Part shown: one piece after another, positions 4,488 to 48,572 of the stretch | How the letters are laid out: every line of letters begins with the position of its first letter | Position numbering within the stretch: position 1 is the first letter of the stretch | Sequence record: ON528727 | Reading direction: 5' to 3' (one strand) | Source: Shigella phage ESh17 | DNA: 64,000 nucleotides | Notes under the pieces: generated by a model | What the model was told of the DNA's origin: nothing | What the model saw: the letters and a program-made list of their open reading frames with translations, nothing else | The model's database searches: none | Program-made: the position numbers and the translations under genes

Positions 4488-5396
4488 ATGTTTAAACGTA
4501 AATCTACTGCTGAACTCGCTGCACAAATGGCTAAACTGGCTGGAAATAAAGGTGGTTTTTCTTCTGAAGATAAAGGCGAGTGGAAACTGAAACTCGACAA
4601 TGCGGGTAACGGTCAAGCAGTAATTCGTTTTCTTCCGTCTAAAAATGATGAACAAGCACCATTCGCAATTCTTGTAAATCACGGTTTCAAGAAAAACGGT
4701 AAATGGTATATTGAAAACTGTTCATCTACCCACGGTGATTACGATTCTTGTCCAGTATGTCAGTACATCAATAAAAATGATTTGTACAACACTGACAATA
4801 AAGAATACGGTCTTGTTAAACGTAAAACTTCTTACTGGGCTAACATTCTTGTTGTAAAAGACCCAGCTGCTCCAGAAAATGAAGGTAAAGTATTTAAATA
4901 CCGTTTCGGTAAGAAAATCTGGGATAAAATCAATGCAATGATTGCAGTTGATGTTGAAATGGGTGAAACTCCGGTTGATGTAACTTGTCCGTGGGAAGGT
5001 GCTAACTTTGTACTGAAAGTTAAACAAGTTTCTGGTTTTAGTAACTACGACGAATCTAAATTCCTGAATCAATCTGCGATTCCAAACATTGATGATGAAT
5101 CTTTCCAGAAAGAACTGTTCGAACAAATGGTTGACCTTTCTGAAATGACTTCTAAAGATAAATTCAAATCGTTTGAAGAACTGAGCACTAAGTTCAGTCA
5201 AGTTATGGGAACTGCTGCTATGGGTGGTGCCGCAGCAACTGCTGCTAAGAAAGCCGATAAAGTTGCTGATGATTTGGATGCATTTAATGTTGATGACTTC
5301 AAAACAAAAACTGAAGATGATTTTATGAGCTCAAGCTCTGGCAGTTCATCTAGTGCTGATGACACGGACCTGGATGACCTTTTGAATGACCTTTAA
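4488..5396 (+). CDS. 32: Single-stranded DNA-binding protein gp32
   Basis: [24 protein letters not shown]..., acidic Ser/Asp-rich C-terminus, upstream pseudoknot leader. Confidence 0.97.
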
Positions 5397-5418
5397 TAGA
5401 TTATATTACTAATTAATT

Positions 5419-5444
5419 GGGGACCTCTAGGGTCCCCTTTTTTA
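5419..5444 (+). terminator. Intrinsic terminator after gene 32
   Basis: GGGGACC-tctag-GGTCCCC followed by TTTTTTT. Confidence 0.75.
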
Positions 5445-5468
5445 TTTCAAAAATTTTTTCACAAAACG

Positions 5469-5498
5469 GTTTACATCCTTGTCCTTCCATGGTACTAT
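5469..5498 (+). promoter_or_regulatory. Early promoter
   Basis: GGTTTACA, 18 nt, TACTAT. Confidence 0.5.
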
Positions 5499-5541
5499 AC
5501 AACTATCGGCAATACTGCTGATGATTAAAGAGGAAAATAAT

Positions 5542-5769
5542 ATGGCTAAAGTTGATATTGACATCGTTGATTTTGAATATATCGAAGAAATTATTCGTAA
5601 TCGTTATCCTGAACTTAGTATCACAAGCGTGCAAGATTCTAAGTTTTGGAGTATTCAAATCGTTATTGAAGGTCCTCTTGAAGACCTCACCCGCTTTATG
5701 GCTAATGAGTATTGTGATGGTATGGATTCTGAAGACGCAGAATTTTACATGGGACTGATTGAACAATAA
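5542..5769 (+). CDS. Hypothetical early protein (frd.3 position)
   Basis: ORF with SD AAGAGG 9 nt before ATG 5542; track ORF starts at TTG 5479 upstream of the likely transcript start. Confidence 0.5.
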
Positions 5770-5776
5770 TTATCAA

Positions 5777-5798
5777 GGGGCTATTTGATAGCCCCGTT
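5777..5798 (+). terminator. Hairpin after frd.3-position ORF
   Basis: GGGGCTAT-ttga-TAGCCCC then GTT. Confidence 0.5.
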
Positions 5799-5815
5799 AA
5801 ACTGAGGAAATCAAA

Positions 5816-6202
5816 ATGGAAGTTGGAAAAACTTATATCATTAACCCTTTATTTAAAAATGACTTTGCTAACGAGTGCCGTTGCAATGTAATGATGCTAA
5901 ATTTAATAGAGAAGCACGGACCTAGTTTTGTTGTAGATGAAATGGAAAGTGATGATTGTGCTGGTGAATGTGTGGTACGTGTAACTATGGAAGATGGCAC
6001 TAAATACATGGCGGGTGGCCCACTTGAGACGTATTTTGAGATTTACTCTGAAGAATTCAAATACTTTACTGAGGTAACTTTAGAAAAGCCTCAATCCGCT
6101 AATGAAGGTATAGTTTCTGGCGTAACAAAAATTCACTGCATTGTTGACGAAAACAATGTAGATGAAATCATTGAACTTTTGCGAAAAACTTTCAAAAAGT
6201 AG
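5816..6202 (+). CDS. Hypothetical early protein, Cys-rich (frd.x position)
   Basis: 128 aa ORF, SD GAGGA, follows terminator hairpin. Confidence 0.6.
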   Translation: MEVGKTYIINPLFKNDFANECRCNVMMLNLIEKHGPSFVVDEMESDDCAGECVVRVTMEDGTKYMAGGPLETYFEIYSEEFKYFTEVTLEKPQSANEGIVSGVTKIHCIVDENNVDEIIELLRKTFKK

Positions 6203-6231
6203 TTTACAACAGGGTAGTAGTGTGATACTAT
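6202..6231 (+). promoter_or_regulatory. Early promoter with dyad symmetry AGGGTA/TACCCT around the -10
   Basis: GTTTACA, spacer, TACTAT; inverted repeat 6211-6216/6232-6237. Confidence 0.5.
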
Positions 6232-6259
6232 TACCCTATCAACTACTGAGGAGAATAAA

Positions 6260-6502
6260 ATGAGATTACAACGCCAGAGCATCAAAGATTCAGAAGTTAG
6301 AGGTAAATGGTATTTTAATATCATCGGTAAAGATTCTGATCTCGTTGAAAAAGCTGAACATCTTTTACGTGACATGGGATGGGAAGATGAATGCGATGGA
6401 TGTCCTCTTTATGAAGACGGAGAAAGCGCAGGATTTTGGATTTACCATTCTGACGTCGAGCAGTTTAAAGCTGATTGGAAAATTGTGAAAAAGTCTGTTT
6501 GA
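6260..6502 (+). CDS. Hypothetical early protein
   Basis: 80 aa ORF with SD GAGGAG, own early promoter upstream. Confidence 0.6.
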   Translation: MRLQRQSIKDSEVRGKWYFNIIGKDSDLVEKAEHLLRDMGWEDECDGCPLYEDGESAGFWIYHSDVEQFKADWKIVKKSV

Positions 6503-6511
6503 GGAAATATA

Positions 6512-7332
<821 letters not shown>

Positions 7333-22188: not shown

Positions 22189-22639
22189 GTTAGAGATTAG
22201 AAGCAATTTTAGGTGGCCATCATGTGCATTAAGTAATTTCGCCCAATGGCCTTTCGTTATGGATGGTATTCAATTTGGAGGTCTTGAAGGATTCCTCCAA
22301 GGGTGCAAGGTGAAAAATGTTGAACAACAACGTCGTATATTTGGGTTATCCGGGCTTGCCGCCCAACAAGCTGGAAGGTCTTATGCTAGAGCTCAGGACC
22401 GTGGGACCCTCTTCTGGCTTGGAGTTCCATTTTCAAGATACTCCCCAGCGTGGAAAGAATTATACACAAATGCATATTTTGAAGCAGCGATCCAAAATAG
22501 GGGCTTTCGCGATGCATTACAAGCCTCGAAAGGAAAAGTTTTGAAGCACAGCATGGCTAGTGGTCTAACAAAAGATGATACAATACTAACCGAAGCTGAA
22601 TTTATTGATGTGTTAAACCTATTAAGAGACTCTCTATGA
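22181..22639 (+). CDS. NADAR/YbiA-like (DUF1768) protein
   Basis: LSNFAQWPFVMDGIQFGGLEGFLQ resembles the YbiA motif FSNFAAWPIKVDG...HYFQ; first ATG used (track TTG 22175); locally GC-richer by eye. Confidence 0.55.
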   Translation: MSELEIRSNFRWPSCALSNFAQWPFVMDGIQFGGLEGFLQGCKVKNVEQQRRIFGLSGLAAQQAGRSYARAQDRGTLFWLGVPFSRYSPAWKELYTNAYFEAAIQNRGFRDALQASKGKVLKHSMASGLTKDDTILTEAEFIDVLNLLRDSL

Positions 22640-23499
22640 AGCCTACTATTTTAACTGATATTGATGGAGTATGTTTAAGCTGGCAATCAGGTCTTCCTTA
22701 TTTTGCTCAGAAATATAATCTTCCGTTAGAACATATTTTAAAAATGATCCAAGATGAGAAATTTATTTCTCCAGGTAAACTATTTAATTGTGATGAAGAA
22801 CTTGGCGTCAAGTTAATTGAAAAATACAATCGTTCAGATTTTATTCGTTACTTGTCTCCGTATAAAGATGCTCTGTGTGTAATTAACAAATTAAAAGAAG
22901 ATTATAATTTTGTAGCTGTTACAGCATTGGGTGATTCTATTGACGCTCTGTTGAATCGTCAATTTAATTTGAATGCTCTTTTTCCTGGTGCCTTCTCAGA
23001 AGTAATGATGTGTGGTCATGATTCTTCAAAAGAAGAGTTATTCAAAAAGGCAAAAGAGAAATATAACGTAATTTGTTATATTGACGATCTTGCTCACCAC
23101 TGCGATCATGCGAGTGAAATATTAAATGTTCCGGTTTATTGGATGGCTCGAGGAGAGCGTGACAATATTCCAAAAACTGCGCAGCGAGTTTATACATGGA
23201 ATGATGTAGAAAATAAGCTTTTTTCACCGAAGGAAAATAAAGAAAGTTTTGATAGTGAAAAAGCTATAAAAGATGTAATTGAGAAGATGGTTAAAAACGA
23301 TTCTTTTCGTTGGAACACTACCTGGAGAACTCCTGGATTTAATCCGTATAATCCATATTATACACATCCATATAATCCATATTATACACACCCGTATCAT
23401 ATGAATCCATTCCATACGTGGAGTTATACTAAGCCTGGTGATGCAGGGTATTTTAATAGATTTACTAGTGGTGATAATATTTTCCAAGGAGCATTCTAA
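22636..23499 (+). CDS. HAD-superfamily phosphatase/nucleotidase-like protein with C-terminal NPYYTHPY repeats
   Basis: N-terminal ILTDIDGV (HAD motif I); C-terminal tandem Pro/Tyr repeats. Confidence 0.6.
   Translation: MKPTILTDIDGVCLSWQSGLPYFAQKYNLPLEHILKMIQDEKFISPGKLFNCDEELGVKLIEKYNRSDFIRYLSPYKDALCVINKLKEDYNFVAVTALGDSIDALLNRQFNLNALFPGAFSEVMMCGHDSSKEELFKKAKEKYNVICYIDDLAHHCDHASEILNVPVYWMARGERDNIPKTAQRVYTWNDVENKLFSPKENKESFDSEKAIKDVIEKMVKNDSFRWNTTWRTPGFNPYNPYYTHPYNPYYTHPYHMNPFHTWSYTKPGDAGYFNRFTSGDNIFQGAF
23350..23397 (+). repeat. 24 bp tandem repeat, 2 copies, encoding NPYYTHPY
   Basis: aatccatattatacacatccatat followed by aatccatattatacacacccgtat, in frame within the HAD-like ORF. Confidence 0.7.
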
Positions 23500-23768
23500 T
23501 GTTTGTCGTTCACACTATTTATGAAAATGAAGGTAATACTACACGTGATTATGGTCACGTAAATCAATTTTTTAGATGCAATCCAGAATTCCGAGCTCAA
23601 AAAGACGAACGAATTTTTAAAAAATGTGTAGAGCAAGGTTTCATTTATATCAAGCACTGGATGCAAGGAAATAAAGTTAGAACTACATATCATAGGTCTT
23701 TGACTGAGCTTAATGATGAATTGATTTATAATAGAGCTGTAAACCAAACTCTAAAGGATGAACAATGA
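23499..23768 (+). CDS. Hypothetical protein (30.1 position)
   Basis: 89 aa ORF, TAATG/ATGA coupling. Confidence 0.55.
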   Translation: MFVVHTIYENEGNTTRDYGHVNQFFRCNPEFRAQKDERIFKKCVEQGFIYIKHWMQGNKVRTTYHRSLTELNDELIYNRAVNQTLKDEQ

Positions 23769-25228
23769 TTCTTAAAATTCTGAACGAAATAGCATCTATT
23801 GGTTCAACTAAGCAGAAGCAAGCAATTCTTGAAAAGAATAAAGATAATGAATTGCTTAAACGAGTATATCGTCTAACTTATTCTCGTGGGTTACAGTATT
23901 ATATCAAGAAATGGCCTAAACCTGGTATTGCTACCCAGAGTTTTGGAATGTTGACTCTTACCGATATGCTTGACTTCATTGAATTCACATTAGCTACTCG
24001 GAAATTGACTGGAAATGCGGCAATTGAAGAATTAACTGGATATATCACCGATGGTAAAAAGGATGATGTTGAAGTTTTGCGTCGGGTGATGATGCGAGAC
24101 CTTGAATGCGGTGCTTCAGTATCTATTGCAAACAAAGTTTGGCCAGGTTTAATTCCTGAACAACCTCAAATGCTGGCAAGTTCTTATGATGAAAAAGGCA
24201 TTAATAAGAATATCAAATTTCCAGCCTTTGCCCAATTAAAAGCTGATGGAGCTCGGTGTTTTGCCGAAGTCAGAGGTGATGAATTAGATGATGTTCGTCT
24301 TTTATCACGAGCTGGTAATGAATATCTAGGATTAGACCTTCTCAAAGAAGAGTTAATCAAAATGACCGCTGAAGCCCGCCAGATTCATCCAGAAGGTGTG
24401 TTAATTGATGGCGAATTGGTATACCATGAGCAAGTTAAAAAGGAGCCAGAAGGCCTAGATTTTCTTTTTGATGCTTATCCTGAAATTAGTAAAGCTAAAG
24501 AATTCGCCGAAGTAGCTGAATCTCGTACTGCATCTAATGGCATCGCCAATAAATCTTTAAAGGGAACCATTTCTGAAAAAGAAGCACAATGCATGAAGTT
24601 TCAGGTCTGGGATTATGTACCGTTGGTAGAAATATACGGTCTTCCGGCGTTTCGTTTAAAATATGATGTACGTTTTTCTAAACTAGAACAAATGACATCA
24701 GGATATGATAAAGTAATTTTAATTGAAAACCAGGTAGTAAATAACCTAGATGAAGCTAAGGTAATTTATAAAAAGTATATTGACCAAGGTCTTGAAGGTA
24801 TTATTCTCAAAAATACCGATGGATTGTGGGAAAATGCTCGTTCAAAAAATCTCTATAAATTTAAAGAAGTAATTGATGTTGATTTAAAAATTGTAGGAAT
24901 TTATCCTCACCGTAAAGACCCTACTAAAGCAGGTGGATTTATTCTTGAATCAGAGTGTGGAAAAATTAAAGTAAATGCTGGTTCAGGCTTAAAAGATAAA
25001 GCTGGTGTAAAATCGCATGAACTTGATCGTACTCGCATTATGGAAAACCAAAATTATTATATTGGAAAAATTCTAGAGTGCGAATGCAACGGTTGGTTAA
25101 AATCTGATGGACGTACTGATTACGTTAAATTATTTCTTCCGATTGCGATTCGTTTACGTGAAGATAAAACTAAAGCTAATACATTCGAGGATGTATTTGG
25201 TGATTTTCATGAGGTAACTGGTCTATGA
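23765..25228 (+). CDS. 30: ATP-dependent DNA ligase
   Basis: 487 aa MILKILNEIASIGSTKQKQAILEKNKDNELLKRVYRL..., adenylation motif KADGAR. Confidence 0.97.
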   Translation: MILKILNEIASIGSTKQKQAILEKNKDNELLKRVYRLTYSRGLQYYIKKWPKPGIATQSFGMLTLTDMLDFIEFTLATRKLTGNAAIEELTGYITDGKKDDVEVLRRVMMRDLECGASVSIANKVWPGLIPEQPQMLASSYDEKGINKNIKFPAFAQLKADGARCFAEVRGDELDDVRLLSRAGNEYLGLDLLKEELIKMTAEARQIHPEGVLIDGELVYHEQVKKEPEGLDFLFDAYPEISKAKEFAEVAESRTASNGIANKSLKGTISEKEAQCMKFQVWDYVPLVEIYGLPAFRLKYDVRFSKLEQMTSGYDKVILIENQVVNNLDEAKVIYKKYIDQGLEGIILKNTDGLWENARSKNLYKFKEVIDVDLKIVGIYPHRKDPTKAGGFILESECGKIKVNAGSGLKDKAGVKSHELDRTRIMENQNYYIGKILECECNGWLKSDGRTDYVKLFLPIAIRLREDKTKANTFEDVFGDFHEVTGL

Positions 25229-25413
25229 AAGCTTACTTAGAAACAATTGTCATTGCTCAAAAAGAAGGTGGAGATGTTTCTACTTCTGTATCACAAGTCA
25301 TTCTCGAATTTGTAGATGCATATGCTTATAATAAATTCACAGAAACATTTGATGCCTATGAAAAAGGTCCAAAGTTTGAAATATATCGTACTCTCTTACC
25401 ACTAGATTACTAA
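25225..25413 (+). CDS. Hypothetical small protein between ligase and alt
   Basis: 62 aa ORF, ATGA overlap with ligase, followed by hairpin. Confidence 0.5.
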   Translation: MKAYLETIVIAQKEGGDVSTSVSQVILEFVDAYAYNKFTETFDAYEKGPKFEIYRTLLPLDY

Positions 25414-25434
25414 AGGCCTTCGGGCCTTTAATTT
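25414..25434 (+). terminator. Hairpin/terminator before alt
   Basis: AGGCC-ttcg-GGCCT then TTAATTTT. Confidence 0.5.
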
Positions 25435-25442
25435 TATAAATA
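25435..25442 (+). promoter_or_regulatory. Late promoter TATAAATA for alt
   Basis: TATAAATA about 24 bp before alt ATG, after a terminator hairpin. Confidence 0.6.
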
Positions 25443-25465
25443 GAATAAACACTAGAGAGGATATG

Positions 25466-27559
25466 ATGGAACTCATTACAGAATTATTTGACGAAGATAC
25501 TACTCTTCCGATTACAAACTTAAATCCAAAGAAGAAAATACCGCAAATTTTTTCAGTTCATGTTGATGACGCAATTGAACAACCAGGCTTTCGTTTATGT
25601 ACCTATACATCTGGAGGTGATACTAATCGCGATTTAAAGATGGGCGATAAAATGATGCATATTGTTCCTTTTACATTAACTGCTAAAGGTTCAATTGCTA
25701 AATTAAAAGGTCTCGGTCCAAGCCCAATTAATTACATCAATTCAGTTTTTACTGTTGCAATGCAAACGATGCGTCAGTATAAAATTGATGCCTGCATGCT
25801 CCGTATTCTTAAGTCTAAAACTGCTGGTCAAGCTCGTCAAATTCAACTTATTGCTGATAGACTTATCCGCAGTCGTTCAGGTGGCAGATACGTCCTTCTT
25901 AAGGAACTCTGGGATTACGATAAAAAGTATGCATATATTCTTATACATCGCAAAAATGTATCACTAGAAGACATTCCAGGAGTTCCGGAAATTAGTACCG
26001 AGCTCTTTACTAAAGTTGAATCGAAGGTCGGTGATGTTTATATCAATAAAGATACTGGAGCTCAAGTAACTAAAAATGAGGCAATTGCAGCATCTATTGC
26101 GCAAGAAAATGATAAACGTTCTGACCAAGCTGTAATCGTTAAAGTTAAAATTTCACGTAGAGCAATTGCGCAAAGTCAATCATTGGAATCTTCTAGATTT
26201 GAAAGTGAATTATTCCAGAAGTATGAATCTACCGCAGCTAATTTCAATAAACCTGCTACCGCTCCTTTAATTCCCGAAGCAGAAGAAATGAAGCTTGGAA
26301 TTAATTCGTTAGCTTCTAAAACTAAGGCAGCAAAAATTATTGCCGAAGGAACTGCGAATGAACTTCACTATGACTATAAATTCTTTTCAAAAAGTGAGGT
26401 TGATGAAGTTTCAGAAAAAATTAAAGATGTAATTTTTAACGCAATCAAAAATGAACCAACTACTTCAATAAAATGTTTAGAGAAATACGCAGCAGCTGTT
26501 AATAAATTCTTTGAAGAATATAAAGATAATTGGCTTGATAAACATAATAAAACTCGTAAAGGGCAACCAGATGAAGTCTGGGGAGAAATAACTAAAAATG
26601 CATGGAATGCAGCAAAAACTAAATTCCTCAAACGAATGATTTATAGCTTTTCTGGAATTGGTGCTGGTCCAATGATTGATATTACTATTGCCCGTGATGG
26701 TTCTAAATATACTCCATCACAAAAGCGAGGTATTAGAGAATATTGTGGTTCAGGATATACAGACATTAATAATCTTCTTTTAGGTCGTTACAATCCAGAA
26801 CGATATGATGTAATGAGTGAAAAAGAAATTGAATCTGCTATAAATAATTTAGATTCAGCTTTTGAAAATGGTGACCGCATACCGGAAGGCATTACAGTTT
26901 ATCGTGCTCAAAGTATGACTGCTCCTATATACGAAGCACTAGTTAAAAATAAAGTGTTCTATTTCAGAAATTTTGTATCTACTTCTTTAACTCCTATCAT
27001 TTTTGGACGTTTTGGAATTACACATGCTGGTATTGGTCTTTTAGAACCAGAAGCTCGCAATGAATTAACAGTTGATAAAAATGAAGAAGGAATAACTATT
27101 AATCCAAACGAAATAAGAGCGTATAAAGAAAATCCTGAATACGTTAAAGTTCAAATAGGATGGGCAATTGATGGAGCTCATAAAGTTAATGTTGTATATC
27201 CAGGAAGTCTCGGAATAGCAACAGAAGCCGAAGTTATTCTACCGCGCGGATTGATGGTCAAAGTTAATAAAATAACTGATGCTTCTAATAATGACGGAAC
27301 CACGTCTAATAATACAAAACTCATTCAAGCTGAAGTTATGACCACCGAAGAACTCACCGAATCGGTAATTTATGACGGTGACCGTTTAATGGAAACCGGC
27401 GAAGTAGTTGCAATGACAGGTGATATTGAAATAGAAGACAGAGTTGACTTTGCATCATTTGTTTCATCAAATGTTAAACAGAAAGTAGAATCATCTCTTG
27501 GAATTATTGCGTCTTGCATAGATATTACAAACATGCCTTACAAGTTCGTTCAAGGATAA
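25466..27559 (+). CDS. alt: Alt ADP-ribosyltransferase (head-packaged, injected)
   Basis: 697 aa MELITELFD..., ART motifs TVYRAQS, FVSTSL, EAEVILPRG; late promoter upstream. Confidence 0.9.
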   Translation: MELITELFDEDTTLPITNLNPKKKIPQIFSVHVDDAIEQPGFRLCTYTSGGDTNRDLKMGDKMMHIVPFTLTAKGSIAKLKGLGPSPINYINSVFTVAMQTMRQYKIDACMLRILKSKTAGQARQIQLIADRLIRSRSGGRYVLLKELWDYDKKYAYILIHRKNVSLEDIPGVPEISTELFTKVESKVGDVYINKDTGAQVTKNEAIAASIAQENDKRSDQAVIVKVKISRRAIAQSQSLESSRFESELFQKYESTAANFNKPATAPLIPEAEEMKLGINSLASKTKAAKIIAEGTANELHYDYKFFSKSEVDEVSEKIKDVIFNAIKNEPTTSIKCLEKYAAAVNKFFEEYKDNWLDKHNKTRKGQPDEVWGEITKNAWNAAKTKFLKRMIYSFSGIGAGPMIDITIARDGSKYTPSQKRGIREYCGSGYTDINNLLLGRYNPERYDVMSEKEIESAINNLDSAFENGDRIPEGITVYRAQSMTAPIYEALVKNKVFYFRNFVSTSLTPIIFGRFGITHAGIGLLEPEARNELTVDKNEEGITINPNEIRAYKENPEYVKVQIGWAIDGAHKVNVVYPGSLGIATEAEVILPRGLMVKVNKITDASNNDGTTSNNTKLIQAEVMTTEELTESVIYDGDRLMETGEVVAMTGDIEIEDRVDFASFVSSNVKQKVESSLGIIASCIDITNMPYKFVQG

Positions 27560-27562
27560 ATC

Positions 27563-29620
27563 ATGGAACTTATTACAGAATTATTTGACGGCGCTTCGGC
27601 GCCGGTTGTTAACTTAAATCCTAAGCATAAAATACCACAAATTTTTGCTATTCAAGCCGGTGAAGAAAGCGTGCTTCCTGGATTTAGATTTTGTACATAC
27701 ACCTCTGGCGGTGATACGAATAAAAACGTTAAGCCAGGCGATAAAATGATGCATATCGTAATGATAGGTGTCAACGAGAAATTATCGCTGGTTAAGCTTA
27801 GAAACTTGGGTGGAAATCCAATTGGCGTCATTAATGCTGTTTTTGATACTGCTCTTCAAACAATGAAACAGTATAAAATTGACGCATGCCTATTCCGCGT
27901 ACTAAAAAGTAAAACAAATGGCGCTGCTCGTCAAATGCAAGTTATTGCTGACCGTTTAGTACGTACTAAAGGAGCAGGTCGATATGTTCTTTTAAAGGAA
28001 ATCTGGGACTATGATAAAAAGTATGCATATATTATGGTTTACCGTAAAAATGCCAATTTAGAAGACATTCCAGGTGTACCTCCTATTTCAACTGAGTTAT
28101 TCACAAAAGTTGAATCGAAGGTCGGTGATGTTTATGTAGATGTTAAAACAGGTAATGCTGTTCCTAAAGCTGTCGCTGTTGCTGCTTCTATTGCTTTAGA
28201 AAATGATAAGCGCACGGATCAAGCTGTTATTCAAAAAACTAAAATTAGTCGTCGATTAGCAGCACAAGCTCAATATTCTACTGTCGATGCTTCACTTCAG
28301 GGTGATAGCTTCGCTGCTAAGAAATATCAAGAGTTTGAATCTAAAGTTCCGGTATATAAAGCAGAAGGTCCGATGAACTCTGGCGTTATCCAGATTGGTT
28401 CAAACTTCAGCAAAGGAGCTATCGGTGGTATGAGGAGTGCTTCTCGTTTTAAATCTAGCGATTATGAACTAGAAAACTTCCGAAATCATATTGCATTGGC
28501 CCATGCACGTTTACGTGATCCATCTATCAAGTTGCAGAGCGATATAACATATCAAGGTTCTCAAGAATATTTAAAGAATAAAGAATTCTTTGATTATAAA
28601 ACTGATAAAATTTTAAGCGATCTTGCTGACATTAATATTTCTAATAGCTTTGATGTTATTAAGAAAATTATTAATGATTTAGTTAAAGGTTCTAAAGCTA
28701 CGCCAGATGAAAAGACAGCTATTATTCAATTTGTCATGAATGGCATTTATAAATTGATTAATGAATCTGCTGCCCAGGCATATGAATATGCAAGCACCGA
28801 AGTAACTCCAAAAGGATTAACTCAGGCTGAGTCTGATGTAATTGAAGATTATTGTGCAGATTCATATGTTGAAATGAACTCGTTCCTCTTGGGTAAACCA
28901 GATTCTACCCGTGAAGAATACATGGAACGAGCTATTAAACACATCGAGACAATGGATTCTGCATTCGCTAAAGGTTCAGTTCTTCCTCCAGGAACTACGC
29001 TTTATCGTGGACAAGAAGTTACTTTTAAAACTTTACGTCATAATATTGAAAACAAAATGTTCTATTTCAAGAACTTTGTATCCACGTCGCTTAAACCAAA
29101 CATCTTCGGTGAGCATGGTAAAAACTATATGGCTCTAGATGATTCCGGTGCAGTATTTTCTGGTGAAGGAGAAGGTTCTGTTGATGCTGAAGATTTAATG
29201 CATATGGGTAGTCACTCTGCTTATGCGAATGAAGACGCTGAAACTAGCGTAGGTATGGTAATTAAAGGGGCTGAGCGAATCAAAGTTATCGTTCCAGGTC
29301 ATTTATCAGGATTTCCATCAGAAGCTGAAGTTATTTTACCGCGTGGAATTTTGCTGAAGATTAATAAAGTGAGCACGTACATGATGAAAGAAACTGCTTA
29401 TAATAAGTATCTAATCGAAGGCACAATCGTTCCTCCTTCTGAACAATTAGAAGAATCGGTATATGATGGCGATCATCTAATGGAAACTGGTGAAGTTCGT
29501 CCAATGGCTGGGTTTAATCAATTCCTTGTAGAAGAATCAAAAGAAGAGGAAAACGAAGTTTCTCAAATCTTGGCTTCTTTGGTTAACATCAACGGAATGT
29601 CTAAAAAGTTCAAGATGTAG
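27563..29620 (+). CDS. Alt-like ADP-ribosyltransferase paralogue
   Basis: 685 aa; same N-terminus MELITELFD and same ART motifs (TLYRGQE, FVSTSL, EAEVILPRG), divergent middle region. Confidence 0.8.
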   Translation: MELITELFDGASAPVVNLNPKHKIPQIFAIQAGEESVLPGFRFCTYTSGGDTNKNVKPGDKMMHIVMIGVNEKLSLVKLRNLGGNPIGVINAVFDTALQTMKQYKIDACLFRVLKSKTNGAARQMQVIADRLVRTKGAGRYVLLKEIWDYDKKYAYIMVYRKNANLEDIPGVPPISTELFTKVESKVGDVYVDVKTGNAVPKAVAVAASIALENDKRTDQAVIQKTKISRRLAAQAQYSTVDASLQGDSFAAKKYQEFESKVPVYKAEGPMNSGVIQIGSNFSKGAIGGMRSASRFKSSDYELENFRNHIALAHARLRDPSIKLQSDITYQGSQEYLKNKEFFDYKTDKILSDLADINISNSFDVIKKIINDLVKGSKATPDEKTAIIQFVMNGIYKLINESAAQAYEYASTEVTPKGLTQAESDVIEDYCADSYVEMNSFLLGKPDSTREEYMERAIKHIETMDSAFAKGSVLPPGTTLYRGQEVTFKTLRHNIENKMFYFKNFVSTSLKPNIFGEHGKNYMALDDSGAVFSGEGEGSVDAEDLMHMGSHSAYANEDAETSVGMVIKGAERIKVIVPGHLSGFPSEAEVILPRGILLKINKVSTYMMKETAYNKYLIEGTIVPPSEQLEESVYDGDHLMETGEVRPMAGFNQFLVEESKEEENEVSQILASLVNINGMSKKFKM

Positions 29621-29673
29621 TTTACAAGTCCCTCGTGTTGTGTTACAATAGTTTTACTGACATAACATGAGGA
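29620..29673 (+). repeat. 54 bp promoter/leader cassette, copy 2 (after alt paralogue)
   Basis: Same sequence as 14273-14326 with a few substitutions; -10 here is TACAAT. Confidence 0.7.
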
Positions 29674-29680
29674 ACACAAA

Positions 29681-29971
29681 ATGAAATCTTCTTTACGCTT
29701 TTTAGGTCAAGAACTTGTAGTTGAAGGCGTTATTCCTGCTGATAACGCTTTTAATGAAGCAGTTTATGATGAATTTATCAAAATTTTTGGAACAGATAAA
29801 AAGTTCGGAATTTTTCCTTCTGAAAATTTTTCAAAGCCAGAGCAGACTGAAAGCATTTTCCAAGGTGTAGTAACAGGTAAATTTGAGTCAGAAGCTCCGG
29901 TAAAAATTGAAGTTTATATTGAAGACAGTTTAGTTGCTTCAGTTGCTGCTTTTATTTCATTCCGTAAATAA
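29681..29971 (+). CDS. Hypothetical protein with own early promoter
   Basis: 96 aa ORF, SD GAGGA, convergent with gene 54. Confidence 0.55.
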   Translation: MKSSLRFLGQELVVEGVIPADNAFNEAVYDEFIKIFGTDKKFGIFPSENFSKPEQTESIFQGVVTGKFESEAPVKIEVYIEDSLVASVAAFISFRK

Positions 29972-29977
29972 AAATAT

Positions 29978-29995
29978 GGGGACCGAAAGGTCCCC
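29978..29995. terminator. Bidirectional terminator between convergent 96-aa ORF and gene 54
   Basis: GGGGACC-gaaa-GGTCCCC with A/T-rich flanks on both sides. Confidence 0.7.
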
Positions 29996-29999
29996 ATTG

Positions 30000-30965
30000 T
30001 TATATTGCTCCTAATATTTTACTTTGCGAATTGACAATTCCCGTCATAGTATTAATGTTTGAAATGCTTCCCGCAGTTCCTCCTAATCTACTAAGTCGTG
30101 AAAGCGAATTAGATAGTCCAGTAACACCTCCACTATTTCCGAGAACGCTTTGAATGCCATTTATAGCAGCAGATTCAAGCCACTCAAGCGCAGCTTGTCT
30201 ATCAACCGACCCAGCCTGCATGACTCTATACGCAAAAGTAACATCAAATGTAGTTATTTGGTTATCTCCATCATATGATAGCTCAGGAGCGCTCACTGAC
30301 ACTGGAATGCATCCGGTGAACATCACTGCAGTATGAGGTAATCCATTACGAGCATGAAGATTAACCTGAATATCTGCCTCAACATCTTGTGGCAAAGCAC
30401 GCAGTCCAGTTACTGGGTCTTGAACAGCGTTAACCCAGTCTTGCATTGCACGATAGTTACAAGCTTCTGAATCCATTCTAAATGAAATAACCAAAGGGTC
30501 TAATTCTCTCCCAGTTATACGAATATTAGGAGAGTTATAGTTCCAGTCAGTTTCATAGGATAATCTATTCTCTGGCATTTTTACAGAGTATATCATCAAT
30601 CCAGATGAATTATATGCCATATTAAAGAAGTCAATTAAATATGTACCAACTGTAAATGAACCCAATAAACTTTGAACTGTACGTTGACTCATGGCACCAA
30701 TAAGATATTTACTAACCCCTGATTTTCTTATCAGTTTTTGTGTGCCAGCAGTAATTAGCGTGGTAATTCCCTGATTAATATCGCCTTGAGTCAATCCTAA
30801 CCAATCTGAATTTAGACCCAAGTTATTATAAGAAAAGTTGCTAATTGAACTTATCAACGAAGAGCTTTTAGTTGATGGAGTTGTCGCAAAAACGCAGCTA
30901 AACATATTATTACGTTGAAAATCTGCGTTTATTGCTTGATTATTAAATTCCTCTAAAGAATACAT
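30000..30965 (-). CDS. 54: Baseplate tail-tube initiator gp54
   Basis: 321 aa, position and size as T4 gp54. Confidence 0.9.
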   Translation of the reverse strand: MYSLEEFNNQAINADFQRNNMFSCVFATTPSTKSSSLISSISNFSYNNLGLNSDWLGLTQGDINQGITTLITAGTQKLIRKSGVSKYLIGAMSQRTVQSLLGSFTVGTYLIDFFNMAYNSSGLMIYSVKMPENRLSYETDWNYNSPNIRITGRELDPLVISFRMDSEACNYRAMQDWVNAVQDPVTGLRALPQDVEADIQVNLHARNGLPHTAVMFTGCIPVSVSAPELSYDGDNQITTFDVTFAYRVMQAGSVDRQAALEWLESAAINGIQSVLGNSGGVTGLSNSLSRLSRLGGTAGSISNINTMTGIVNSQSKILGAI

Positions 30966-47930: not shown

Positions 47931-47938
47931 TATTTATA
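47931..47938 (-). promoter_or_regulatory. Late promoter TATAAATA for gene 22
   Basis: TATTTATA 28 bp upstream of gene 22 start, overlapping gene 21 stop. Confidence 0.6.
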
Positions 47939-48572
47939 ACGCTTTTTTCATGGCCTCTGCGAGAGCCATATAGGCGTCATCGGCACTTGTATCGGCTTCC
48001 GCCGTCTGTGATTCGGTAATTTCCTTAGGAGTTACCCATGCATCTGGAGCACTTGGACCCCATACTGCATCAACACCTACAGTTAATTTGAATCCTTCGT
48101 TTACGATACGATAACCTTTATTTGTGTCAGTCAATGAACCTAATCCACGAGAAGAAACTCCTGGAATCCATCCGGCACGAATATTAGCTGCTAATTTATC
48201 TCCAGGACCATGGTCACCTTCAATAACACGAGCTCGTCCGTATACGTCATTTCCTTTCCACCACATATCTTCTATAATGATAGCGGCTTGCATCGGGTCA
48301 ACATTAGCGCGTGGAGGATGATTTAATTCTCCGAGAGCTTGTTTAGTTAAAACTTGCTCATTAATATAGTCTTTTACCGCTTTTTCTAATATGCGTTTTG
48401 GATAAAGACGTTTATTTCTATTGACGACTTCCGCTTGCATGAATATTCCTTCGATGTATAAACCTGGTTTTAAACCTAAGTCTTTTCCATCATGAGATTC
48501 AAGCATTGGTACGCCATCAATAATTTCGCCAGGTTGACCCCAAGTTTCAATTAGTAATTGGGGTTCATTCAT
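47934..48572 (-). CDS. 21: Prohead core protease gp21
   Basis: 212 aa [20 protein letters not shown]... Confidence 0.93.
   Translation of the reverse strand: MNEPQLLIETWGQPGEIIDGVPMLESHDGKDLGLKPGLYIEGIFMQAEVVNRNKRLYPKRILEKAVKDYINEQVLTKQALGELNHPPRANVDPMQAAIIIEDMWWKGNDVYGRARVIEGDHGPGDKLAANIRAGWIPGVSSRGLGSLTDTNKGYRIVNEGFKLTVGVDAVWGPSAPDAWVTPKEITESQTAEADTSADDAYMALAEAMKKAL

Follow-up and report, generated by a model that had tools for sequence, protein, structure and literature searches.

A tandem alt locus in a T2/T6-like Tequatrovirus predicts a second head-packaged arginine ADP-ribosyltransferase

The genome of Shigella phage ESh17 (record ON528727), of which we analysed a 64,000-nucleotide stretch (hereafter the window), carries two adjacent genes of the T4 Alt family of ADP-ribosyltransferases (ARTs): alt (open reading frame 1, ORF1; 25466..27559, + strand, 697 residues), a T2/T6-type allele of the T4 Alt ADP-ribosyltransferase gene, and alt.-2 (ORF2; 27563..29620, + strand, 685 residues), an intact alt paralog predicted to encode a second head-packaged arginine ADP-ribosyltransferase. 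We consider it probable that this is the two-gene state of the alt locus of T2/T6-like Tequatroviruses and that both genes encode arginine-specific mono-ADP-ribosyltransferases that are packaged in the head and injected together with the DNA. The tandem pair itself is already known, being the standard state of the locus in T2, T6, RB32 and several hundred other genomes, annotated in records and noted in the literature; what interest remains lies in an enzyme that is conserved in most T-even phages and probably injected, and for which we found no functional study in the literature.

Results

Both reading frames were recovered at the lengths given in an earlier note made from the sequence alone, on the + strand and 3 nucleotides apart, and alignment confirms that their products are paralogs (BLASTP E = 1e-157, 41% identity overall). 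Both begin with MELITELFD, and the high similarity that the note described over the first 230 residues amounts to 66% identity in residues 7-235; identity falls to 13% in residues 236-415 and is 35% and 43% in the catalytic domain and the C-terminal tail, respectively. The central region is divergent as the note claimed, but it spans about 180 residues (236-415) rather than about 250, with further variable loops inside the catalytic domain. All of the quoted ART motifs could be located: the R motif reads TVYRAQS in ORF1 (R480) and TLYRGQE in ORF2 (R482), and FVSTSL (S505-T-S507 in ORF1, S507-T-S509 in ORF2) and EAEVILPRG (E587-A-E589 in each) are found in both. Loss of catalytic residues on careful alignment, which the note named as a refutation of its reading, was not seen, with R, STS and ExE kept in both ORFs. 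Pfam PF03496 (ADPrib_exo_Tox) matches ORF1 at 128.7 bits (E 2.2e-37) and ORF2 at 73.2 bits (E 2.3e-20), well above its curated cut-off of 23.4 bits, and the Alt family phrog_802 matches both over their full length (E 3e-272 and 5e-256, respectively).

The order of these residues in both ORFs, Arg, then Ser-Thr-Ser, then Glu-x-Glu, is that of the R-S-E clade of ARTs, and the residues line up with YRG and [QE]xE in toxins of solved structure; in R-S-E ADP-ribosyltransferases the ExE motif goes with arginine specificity. Across the Alt family, in an alignment of 57 members (55 representatives of clusters at 50% identity, plus ORF1 and ORF2), the Arg, the first Ser and both Glu residues are invariant and the second Ser is present in 56 members. 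These comparisons support both ORFs as intact Alt-family ADP-ribosyltransferase homologs with all catalytic residues. Between the two proteins, the loops beside ExE and those following STS are unrelated, and three positions before the first catalytic Glu, which we take to be the substrate-recognition loop site of C3-like toxins, 45 of the 57 members have Tyr, Phe or His; ORF2 has Phe there and ORF1 has Ile.

Residue numbering requires some care, as ORF1 is 698 or 697 residues long depending on which of two adjacent ATGs (25463 and 25466, as in T4) is chosen. Shine-Dalgarno spacing favours the ATG at 25466, which corresponds to the annotated T4 start. T4 Alt with its catalytic Glu mutated (E577A) is inactive (PMC11404850), and T4 E577 corresponds to E589 here if the published numbering begins at the upstream ATG. 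In the 682-residue numbering of T4 Alt the catalytic Glu is E576 and the N-terminal propeptide has 6 residues, and the upstream ATG of T4 alt probably explains both the E577 and the 7-residue propeptide numbering of some papers.

The sequences at both ends of the two proteins point to processing by the prohead protease gp21. By mass spectrometry, gp21 cuts T4 Alt after ITE-6 and LTE-619, removing 6 + 63 residues and leaving a mature protein of 68.2 kDa (Ali et al. 2017, PMC5694885), and this processing has also been reviewed (PMC9026906). The shared N-terminus, which the earlier note had read as a plausible protease-processing signal, contains the published T4 site ITE-6. With the gp21 motif defined as [LI]-x-E after residue 6 and [LIMV]-x-E about 50-65 residues before the C-terminus, we found it at both ends of both proteins, as ITE-6 in each, LTE-632 in ORF1 and LEE-631 in ORF2. 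The predicted N-terminal propeptide, MELITE, occupies 25466..25483 (+) in Alt, where it is identical to that of T4 Alt and would be cut after ITE-6, and 27563..27580 (+) in Alt.-2, where the same six residues are disordered in the AlphaFold2 model. The predicted C-terminal propeptides, both aligned with T4 LTE-619, comprise 65 residues after LTE-632 in Alt (27362..27556, +) and 54 residues after LEE-631 in Alt.-2 (29456..29617, +), the latter holding the SVYDGDHLMETGEV motif and falling in a region modelled at a predicted local distance difference test (pLDDT) below 50 (residues 630-685). Both C-terminal propeptides are acidic, and the predicted mature proteins are 70.1 kDa (ORF1) and 69.1 kDa (ORF2). 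Within the family alignment, 55 of 57 members have Glu6 and 55 have Glu631, while the YDGD motif that follows occurs in about 45-48.

The C-terminal segment that the note abbreviated as ESV(I/Y)DGD does occur in both proteins, as ESVIYDGDRLMETGEV in ORF1 and ESVYDGDHLMETGEV in ORF2, but it spans the predicted cleavage site and the start of the predicted propeptide and so would not belong to the mature enzyme, as it sits at the second published gp21 site (T4 LTE-619). The window also encodes gp21 (47937..48572, - strand; Pfam Peptidase_S77, E 1.5e-111), which, by analogy with T4, would be the enzyme that cuts both propeptides off each Alt protein. Because the published T4 Alt cleavage sites are conserved in ORF2, we infer that its product is packaged and injected, a prediction that we regard as well motivated.

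Alignment with T4 Alt and the T4 alt.-1/-2 region, another check proposed in the note, gave each ORF its own counterpart, with ORF1 aligning to Alt and ORF2 to the alt.-1/-2 remnant. The T4 alt.-1 translation reproduces the first ~54 residues of ORF2 almost exactly before a frameshift, and phrog_23015 and phrog_15247, which represent the T4 remnant ORFs, match ORF2 at E 2e-40 and 1e-37 versus E 1e-21 and 2e-19 for ORF1. DNA alignment indicates that T4 has no equivalent of about 1.69 kb of the window (~27911-29600), and frameshifts are also present in T4. On this sequence evidence, ORF2 is the full-length form of the gene annotated in T4 as alt.-1 and alt.-2. Orthologs of ORF2 at 95-100% protein identity occur in 396 phage records, including T2, T6 and RB32 (97-99% identity for these three), with the next matches below 60%, and the gene pair is present in at least 340 phage records, the same three phages among them. 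In RefSeq both genes carry the label "Alt-like RNA polymerase ADP-ribosyltransferase", and the RB32 record names the second alt.-2; the T4 GenBank record puts alt.-1/alt.-2 down to an old duplication of 'the first part of gene alt', the T6 record describes its gene as an 'apparent insertion in alt.-2', and alt paralogs adjoining alt were reported in RB49, 44RR and T4 (Nolan et al. 2006). Comparison of about 400 genomes suggests the reverse of the T4 and T6 record notes, namely that T4 is the deleted state and the full-length gene is widespread. Our search of the literature on Alt-like proteins, alt.-2 and T2/T6 paralog function found no study of the second gene's function, packaging or targets, and Alt.-2 has gone unstudied apparently because the model phage T4 deleted it.

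Both genes bear the marks of function. Ratios of nonsynonymous to synonymous substitution (dN/dS; Nei-Gojobori) against T2, T6 and UFV-AREG1 are 0.030-0.070 for ORF1 and 0.026-0.040 for ORF2, and are low in every domain. These ratios, together with the 396 records that hold ORF2 orthologs, lead us to conclude from sequence comparison that both genes are functional and under strong purifying selection. We considered whether ORF2 is instead a decaying duplicate, a non-functional relic heading for the T4 state, because gene loss is possible, as T4 itself shows, and because one low-quality record (Shigella phage sb4) has the gene in fragments. This alternative is very improbable and is effectively refuted by the selection analysis, as ORF2 is a full-length open frame with low dN/dS at a dS of up to 0.22, is conserved at 95-100% identity across those 396 records, and keeps all catalytic and cleavage motifs.

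In the sb4 record (PQ666542), alt, alt.-2 and gp48 are each split into several short coding sequences, and because all three are fragmented this looks like frameshift sequencing errors rather than biology; we left sb4 out of the selection analysis.

Against a more distant metagenome tandem pair, the central domain evolves fastest (dN/dS 0.59 in Alt and 0.20 in Alt.-2) and the N-terminal domain slowest (0.03-0.07). The latter value bears on a different proposal, that Alt.-2 is mainly structural, a prohead-core or internal head protein for head filling or DNA ejection whose enzyme activity is secondary or absent in vivo: Alt is a component of the T4 head core (PMC9026906, PMC11404850), alt mutants are reported to package more DNA (PMC3012670), and the most conserved part of the family, even at deep divergence, is the non-catalytic N-terminal domain. 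We nonetheless judge this proposal improbable, since the catalytic Arg, STS and ExE are retained in 56-57 of 57 divergent family clusters and the ART domain itself shows a dN/dS of 0.03-0.05, a pattern that would not be expected were catalysis unimportant.

The AlphaFold2 model of ORF2 (mean pLDDT 75.6) comprises an N-terminal domain (residues ~12-235), a central helical domain (~250-415), a catalytic domain (416-630) and disordered ends (1-11 and 630-685). Within the gene we assign a conserved N-terminal alpha/beta domain to residues 7-235 (27581..28267, +), for which Pfam reports PF26846 (Tevenvirinae_ADPRT) on orthologs; a variable all-helical central domain, the region of 13% identity to ORF1, to residues 236-415 (28268..28807, +; block-mean pLDDT mostly 80-93); and, from Pfam, Foldseek and the family profile, the ADP-ribosyltransferase catalytic domain to residues 416-631 (28808..29455, +). 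The catalytic codons lie on the + strand at 29006-29008 (R482), 29081-29089 (S507-T-S509) and 29321-29329 (E587-A-E589). The catalytic domain, modelled at block-mean pLDDT mostly 60-90, matched Vis, C3bot, Certhrax, VIP2, CDTa and iota-like toxins in Foldseek (E 7e-8 to 1e-4), so that in the model ORF2 has the ART fold. A PDB sequence search with ORF2 alone returned nothing at E <= 0.01; searches with ORF1 and with the family profile matched only the catalytic domains of toxins, and the Alt family profile lines up YRG and ExE with solved C3-like and BECa toxins. There appears to be no solved Alt structure.

Both proteins have the layout of the T4 Alt family, an N-terminal Alt domain followed by an ART domain in a protein of ~600-710 residues, and we propose that the N-terminal domain docks in the prohead core and that the central helical domain is a substrate-selection module. 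A MuF-like N-terminal domain, to which the T4-type locus context is treated as the alternative (review PMC9503650), was rejected, as neither protein has a Pfam MuF (Phage_Mu_F) match at E up to 1. HMMER searches with the N-terminal domain found 69 clusters in 1.84 billion representative proteins, the full-length ones mostly of 560-790 residues; seven of the ten members checked with Pfam carry an ART domain, and the other three match the Alt PHROG through their N-terminal part. With no clear evidence of other cargos in this sample (69 clusters, ten of them checked), we set aside the idea that, at the sequence level, the N-terminal domain forms a module independent of its cargo.

Two further observations touch on this domain. 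A pair of distant metagenome relatives (P0184, 541 residues; P0187, 786 residues) have in common an Alt-like N-terminal domain and middle region, and only P0187 has an ART end; P0184, which lacks a recognisable catalytic domain, may represent the N-terminal domain with a different or lost cargo. In BFVD, the ORF2 N-terminal model (27581-28267) was matched moderately well (E 1e-10 to 1e-4; TM-score ~0.4-0.6, by query) by large proteins from Erwinia, Dickeya, Shigella MK-13, Vibrio and Agrobacterium phages; these proteins are uncharacterised, a few of them carrying annotations of Zeta-toxin, deaminase or ParB domains, and the structural matches may hint at a wider superfamily of delivery domains.

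Comparison of ORF1 with T4 Alt shows how the locus may have diversified. Identity is 70% overall and very uneven: ~99% over residues 1-240, 10-40% over 256-405, 60-73% across the greater part of the catalytic domain and 80-97% in the C-terminal part, or, by domain, 99% in the N-terminal domain, 32% in the central domain, 66% in the ART domain and 94% in the C-terminal propeptide. Judged from sequence, ORF1 is the T4 Alt ortholog, but a mosaic one. Its T2/T6-type middle section is found at >=95% identity in 314 phage records, whereas T4-type phages reach only ~43-46%. Dhakavirus WG01 (NC_031928; 2012-8124 of the extracted locus, L005) has three tandem Alt-like genes of 631, 693 and 707 residues at the same locus. 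Their N-terminal domains are 63-68% identical to one another and 42-46% identical to the Tequatrovirus ones; their ART domains have counterparts in the window, with WG01 ORF200 95% identical to ORF1 and WG01 ORF199 56% identical to ORF2 at the protein level. The cassette common to WG01 and ORF1 has 81% nucleotide identity over 1263 nucleotides, versus 65.6% for the adjoining ligase gene. In these sequences, N-terminal domains group by genome and cassettes group by type across genera. The first WG01 gene has ITE at the C-terminal cleavage position and is without the YDGD...ETGE tail seen in the other copies.

Hybrid genes that join an Alt-type N-terminus to the rest of Alt.-2, with varied breakpoints (P0003, P0005, P0007), imply unequal recombination between tandem N-terminal domains, since a single hybrid is the only alt-family gene in the complete genomes of ECML-134 (NC_025449, 120744-122801), SCS4 and Yersinia phage PST (NC_027404, 120982-123039, annotated 'alt'), and locus L002 has a single hybrid at 5001-7055. 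The presence of such hybrids in complete isolate genomes led us to reject metagenome assembly artefacts (suspected for P0005 and P0007) as an explanation of the hybrid type as a whole, while individual Logan contigs with hybrids could be collapsed repeats. The two N-terminal regions in the window have ~71% DNA identity and no long exact repeat. Across the Alt family the central domain is essentially unconserved (7-29% identity), and the locus occurs with one hybrid gene, with one gene and a remnant (T4), with two genes (the window) and with three genes (WG01). We read these sequences as a cassette system in which a conserved N-terminal domain and two propeptides flank a replaceable central-plus-ART module, and we propose that recombination between similar N-terminal domains changes the copy number of alt.

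Candidate expression signals fit a single late transcript. Upstream of alt, consensus scanning found a terminator-like hairpin with a T-run (25411..25430, +), identical to one upstream of T4 alt, which probably stops read-through from early genes, and an exact match to TATAAATA, which we take to be the T4 late-promoter consensus, about 24 nucleotides before the alt start codon (25435..25442, +) and in the same place in T4. Scanning of the 3-nucleotide junction between ORF1 and ORF2 showed no terminator-like site and no separate late-promoter motif, and for this reason alt and alt.-2 are likely to form one operon with a two-gene late transcript; ORF2 has a ribosome-binding motif, AAGGA, of its own.

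ORF1 itself contains another exact TATAAATA at 26839-26846 (+), ~720 nucleotides upstream of ORF2, and we treat it as a probable chance match rather than an internal late promoter because the motif occurs 18 times in the window against ~9 expected by chance.

The window is part of a Tequatrovirus genome. Over positions 25200-30000 it shares 99.7% identity with Shigella phage ESh18 and 97% with T2, RB32, Shfl2 and others, and the genes run in the order DNA ligase, alt.1, ORF1, ORF2, alt.-3 and then, on the opposite strand, gp54, gp48 and gp29, so that the two ORFs lie between gene 30/alt.1 and alt.-3/gene 54 in the same order as in T4. DNA ligase (gene 30) lies at 23765-25228 and the alt.1 homolog, 62 residues, between gene 30 and alt at 25225..25413 (+; Pfam PF24647 Phage_blade, E 1.9e-29), the position of T4 alt.1. 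Downstream is the alt.-3 homolog (DUF5498, 96 residues; 29681..29971, +; PF17602, E 1.4e-64), preceded by a sigma-70-like promoter (29621..29649, +) with TTTACA, a 17-nucleotide spacer, TACAAT and an upstream TG, which scored 10/12 in the scan as a pattern match only. A bidirectional terminator-like hairpin (29976..29997, both strands, by scan) separates alt.-3 from gene 54 and begins within 5 nucleotides downstream of the alt.-3 stop codon. T4 mutants with C-terminal extensions of Alt.-3 (110 or 117 residues) escape CmdTAC, a defence system with an ADP-ribosyltransferase toxin (PMC11618068). Further upstream, the gene 30.2 homolog (22636-23499, +, 287 residues) has a C-terminal short tandem peptide repeat (NPYNPYYTHPYNPYYTHPYHMNPF), and the length of this gene varies, with 278 residues in T4 and 284 and 279 in two metagenome loci.

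Discussion

The reading that we favour can be set out as a sequence of steps. A late promoter behind a terminator would drive a two-gene transcript, alt and then alt.-2, as the motifs and the 3-nucleotide gap suggest. Both precursors would then enter the prohead scaffolding core, probably via the N-terminal domain and/or the propeptides, and gp21 would cut after ITE, removing 6 N-terminal residues, and after L-x-E, removing the C-terminal tail, as published for T4 Alt, with the motifs conserved here. The mature enzymes would be injected along with the DNA and would ADP-ribosylate arginines of host proteins, again as published for T4 Alt and as R/STS/ExE predict for the proteins studied here, with substrate choice probably set by the loops around the catalytic site together with the central domain, which is helical and variable. 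Conservation strongly suggests that ORF2 is catalytically competent, packaged and processed. As the central domain and the catalytic-site loops differ almost completely, Alt and Alt.-2 probably modify different sets of host proteins, and the diversified target specificity that the earlier note suggested is plausible on the basis of this divergence. T4 Alt ADP-ribosylates Arg265 of RNA polymerase alpha ('alteration'), an activity published for T4 Alt only (PMC8120803); the note's statement that Alt modifies RNA polymerase and a host toxin agrees with the literature, in which RNA polymerase and MazF are both targets (PMC8120803).

Several points weigh against this reading. We infer the translation, packaging, cleavage, injection and catalysis of ORF2 from its sequence, and our literature search turned up neither virion proteomics, transcript data nor enzymology for any alt.-2 ortholog. 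As promoter and terminator calls we have only matches to consensus patterns, to which the chance expectation for TATAAATA given above also applies. The ORF2 N-terminal domain matched no known fold, which makes the role that we assign to it a guess. Moreover, T4 grows without alt.-2, and ECML-134 and PST are without the Alt-type cassette; since either cassette has been lost naturally, each is dispensable, and redundancy fits this as well as separate targets do.

Redundancy of this kind deserves the most serious consideration among the alternatives, although we think it distinctly less probable than two enzymes with separate roles. Under it, Alt.-2 would be an active, injected back-up with essentially the host targets of Alt (RNA polymerase alpha Arg265 and others), supplying dosage or robustness, against host variants or inhibitors for instance. 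That either cassette can be lost naturally (T4 has no alt.-2; ECML-134, SCS4 and PST have only the Alt.-2 type) is consistent with such a role, as are the breadth of T4 Alt, which already has at least 27 targets, and the precedent in T4 of overlapping targets, Alt and ModA both acting on alpha R265 (PMC8120803). Central domains that are only 13% identical and unrelated loops by ExE and after STS argue for distinct substrates instead, and strong purifying selection on both copies in ~400 genomes would be unusual for fully redundant genes.

Taking the two-enzyme reading together with the cassette organization, we tentatively propose, with rather less than even confidence, that most T-even phages inject two different ARTs, that Alt.-2 has host targets of its own, and that the alt locus resembles a polymorphic effector system. 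In such a system, cassettes swapped between phages and genera, at 1 to 3 copies per genome, would be carried on a delivery scaffold that stays fixed (N-propeptide, N-terminal domain and C-propeptide), and the target of Alt.-2 could possibly be a defence or stress-response protein, by analogy with the action of Alt on MazF. Work on phage ADP-ribosylation rests almost entirely on T4, with its three ARTs, Alt, ModA and ModB; to these, the usual Tequatrovirus state (T2, T6, RB phages, ~400 genomes) adds a fourth conserved, probably injected ART. If its targets differ from those of Alt, T4-based models of host takeover are incomplete for most relatives of T4, including many candidate therapeutic phages. 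The cassette architecture also points to a natural scaffold by which engineered enzymes could be delivered via the phage head.

Comparison with known systems

T4 Alt (gpAlt, NP_049811; NAD+--arginine ADP-ribosyltransferase, ~40 copies per head) is the closest characterized relative, to which ORF1 is the positional ortholog and ORF2 a paralog. All three have in common the locus, the N-terminal domain, both gp21 motifs, R/STS/ExE, and the upstream hairpin and late-promoter motif. ORF1 differs from T4 Alt in its central-plus-ART cassette (34% of residues in the ART domain and 68% in the central domain), whereas ORF2 is 41% identical to T4 Alt overall; its central domain is unrelated, and its loops near the catalytic site differ. 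With respect to T4 alt.-1/alt.-2 (NP_049810, NP_049809), ORF2 is the intact version of a gene of which the T4 copy is deleted and frameshifted.

Among R-S-E ARTs outside the Alt family, the C3-like and binary toxins (C3bot, Vis, Certhrax, VIP2, iota Ia, CDTa and BECa) have the catalytic fold and R/STS/[QE]xE in common with the ORFs, at a sequence identity of only 13-19%. Delivery also differs, with Alt proteins carried in the phage head and these toxins relying on secretion or a B-component pore, and VIP2 and iota toxin have a duplicated ART-like N-terminal adaptor, in contrast to the ORF2 N-terminal domain, which does not have an ART-like fold. T4 ModA and ModB, none of which we found in the alt region of the window, are, like the Alt proteins, R-S-E ARTs encoded by a phage and directed at host proteins of transcription and translation, but they are small, made after infection and encoded at another locus, and they have neither the N-terminal Alt domain nor propeptides; Alt is active straight after infection, ModA/ModB later, according to a review. 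In their predicted mode of delivery, the Alt proteins resemble T4 IPI, IPII and IPIII, with which they share a short cleavable N-terminal signal, scaffolding-core packaging, gp21 processing, injection and a payload that varies widely among related phages. The IP proteins are small, non-enzymatic and present at ~360 copies per head, whereas the Alt proteins are enzymes of ~70 kDa that possess, in addition, a conserved 230-residue domain and a C-terminal propeptide.

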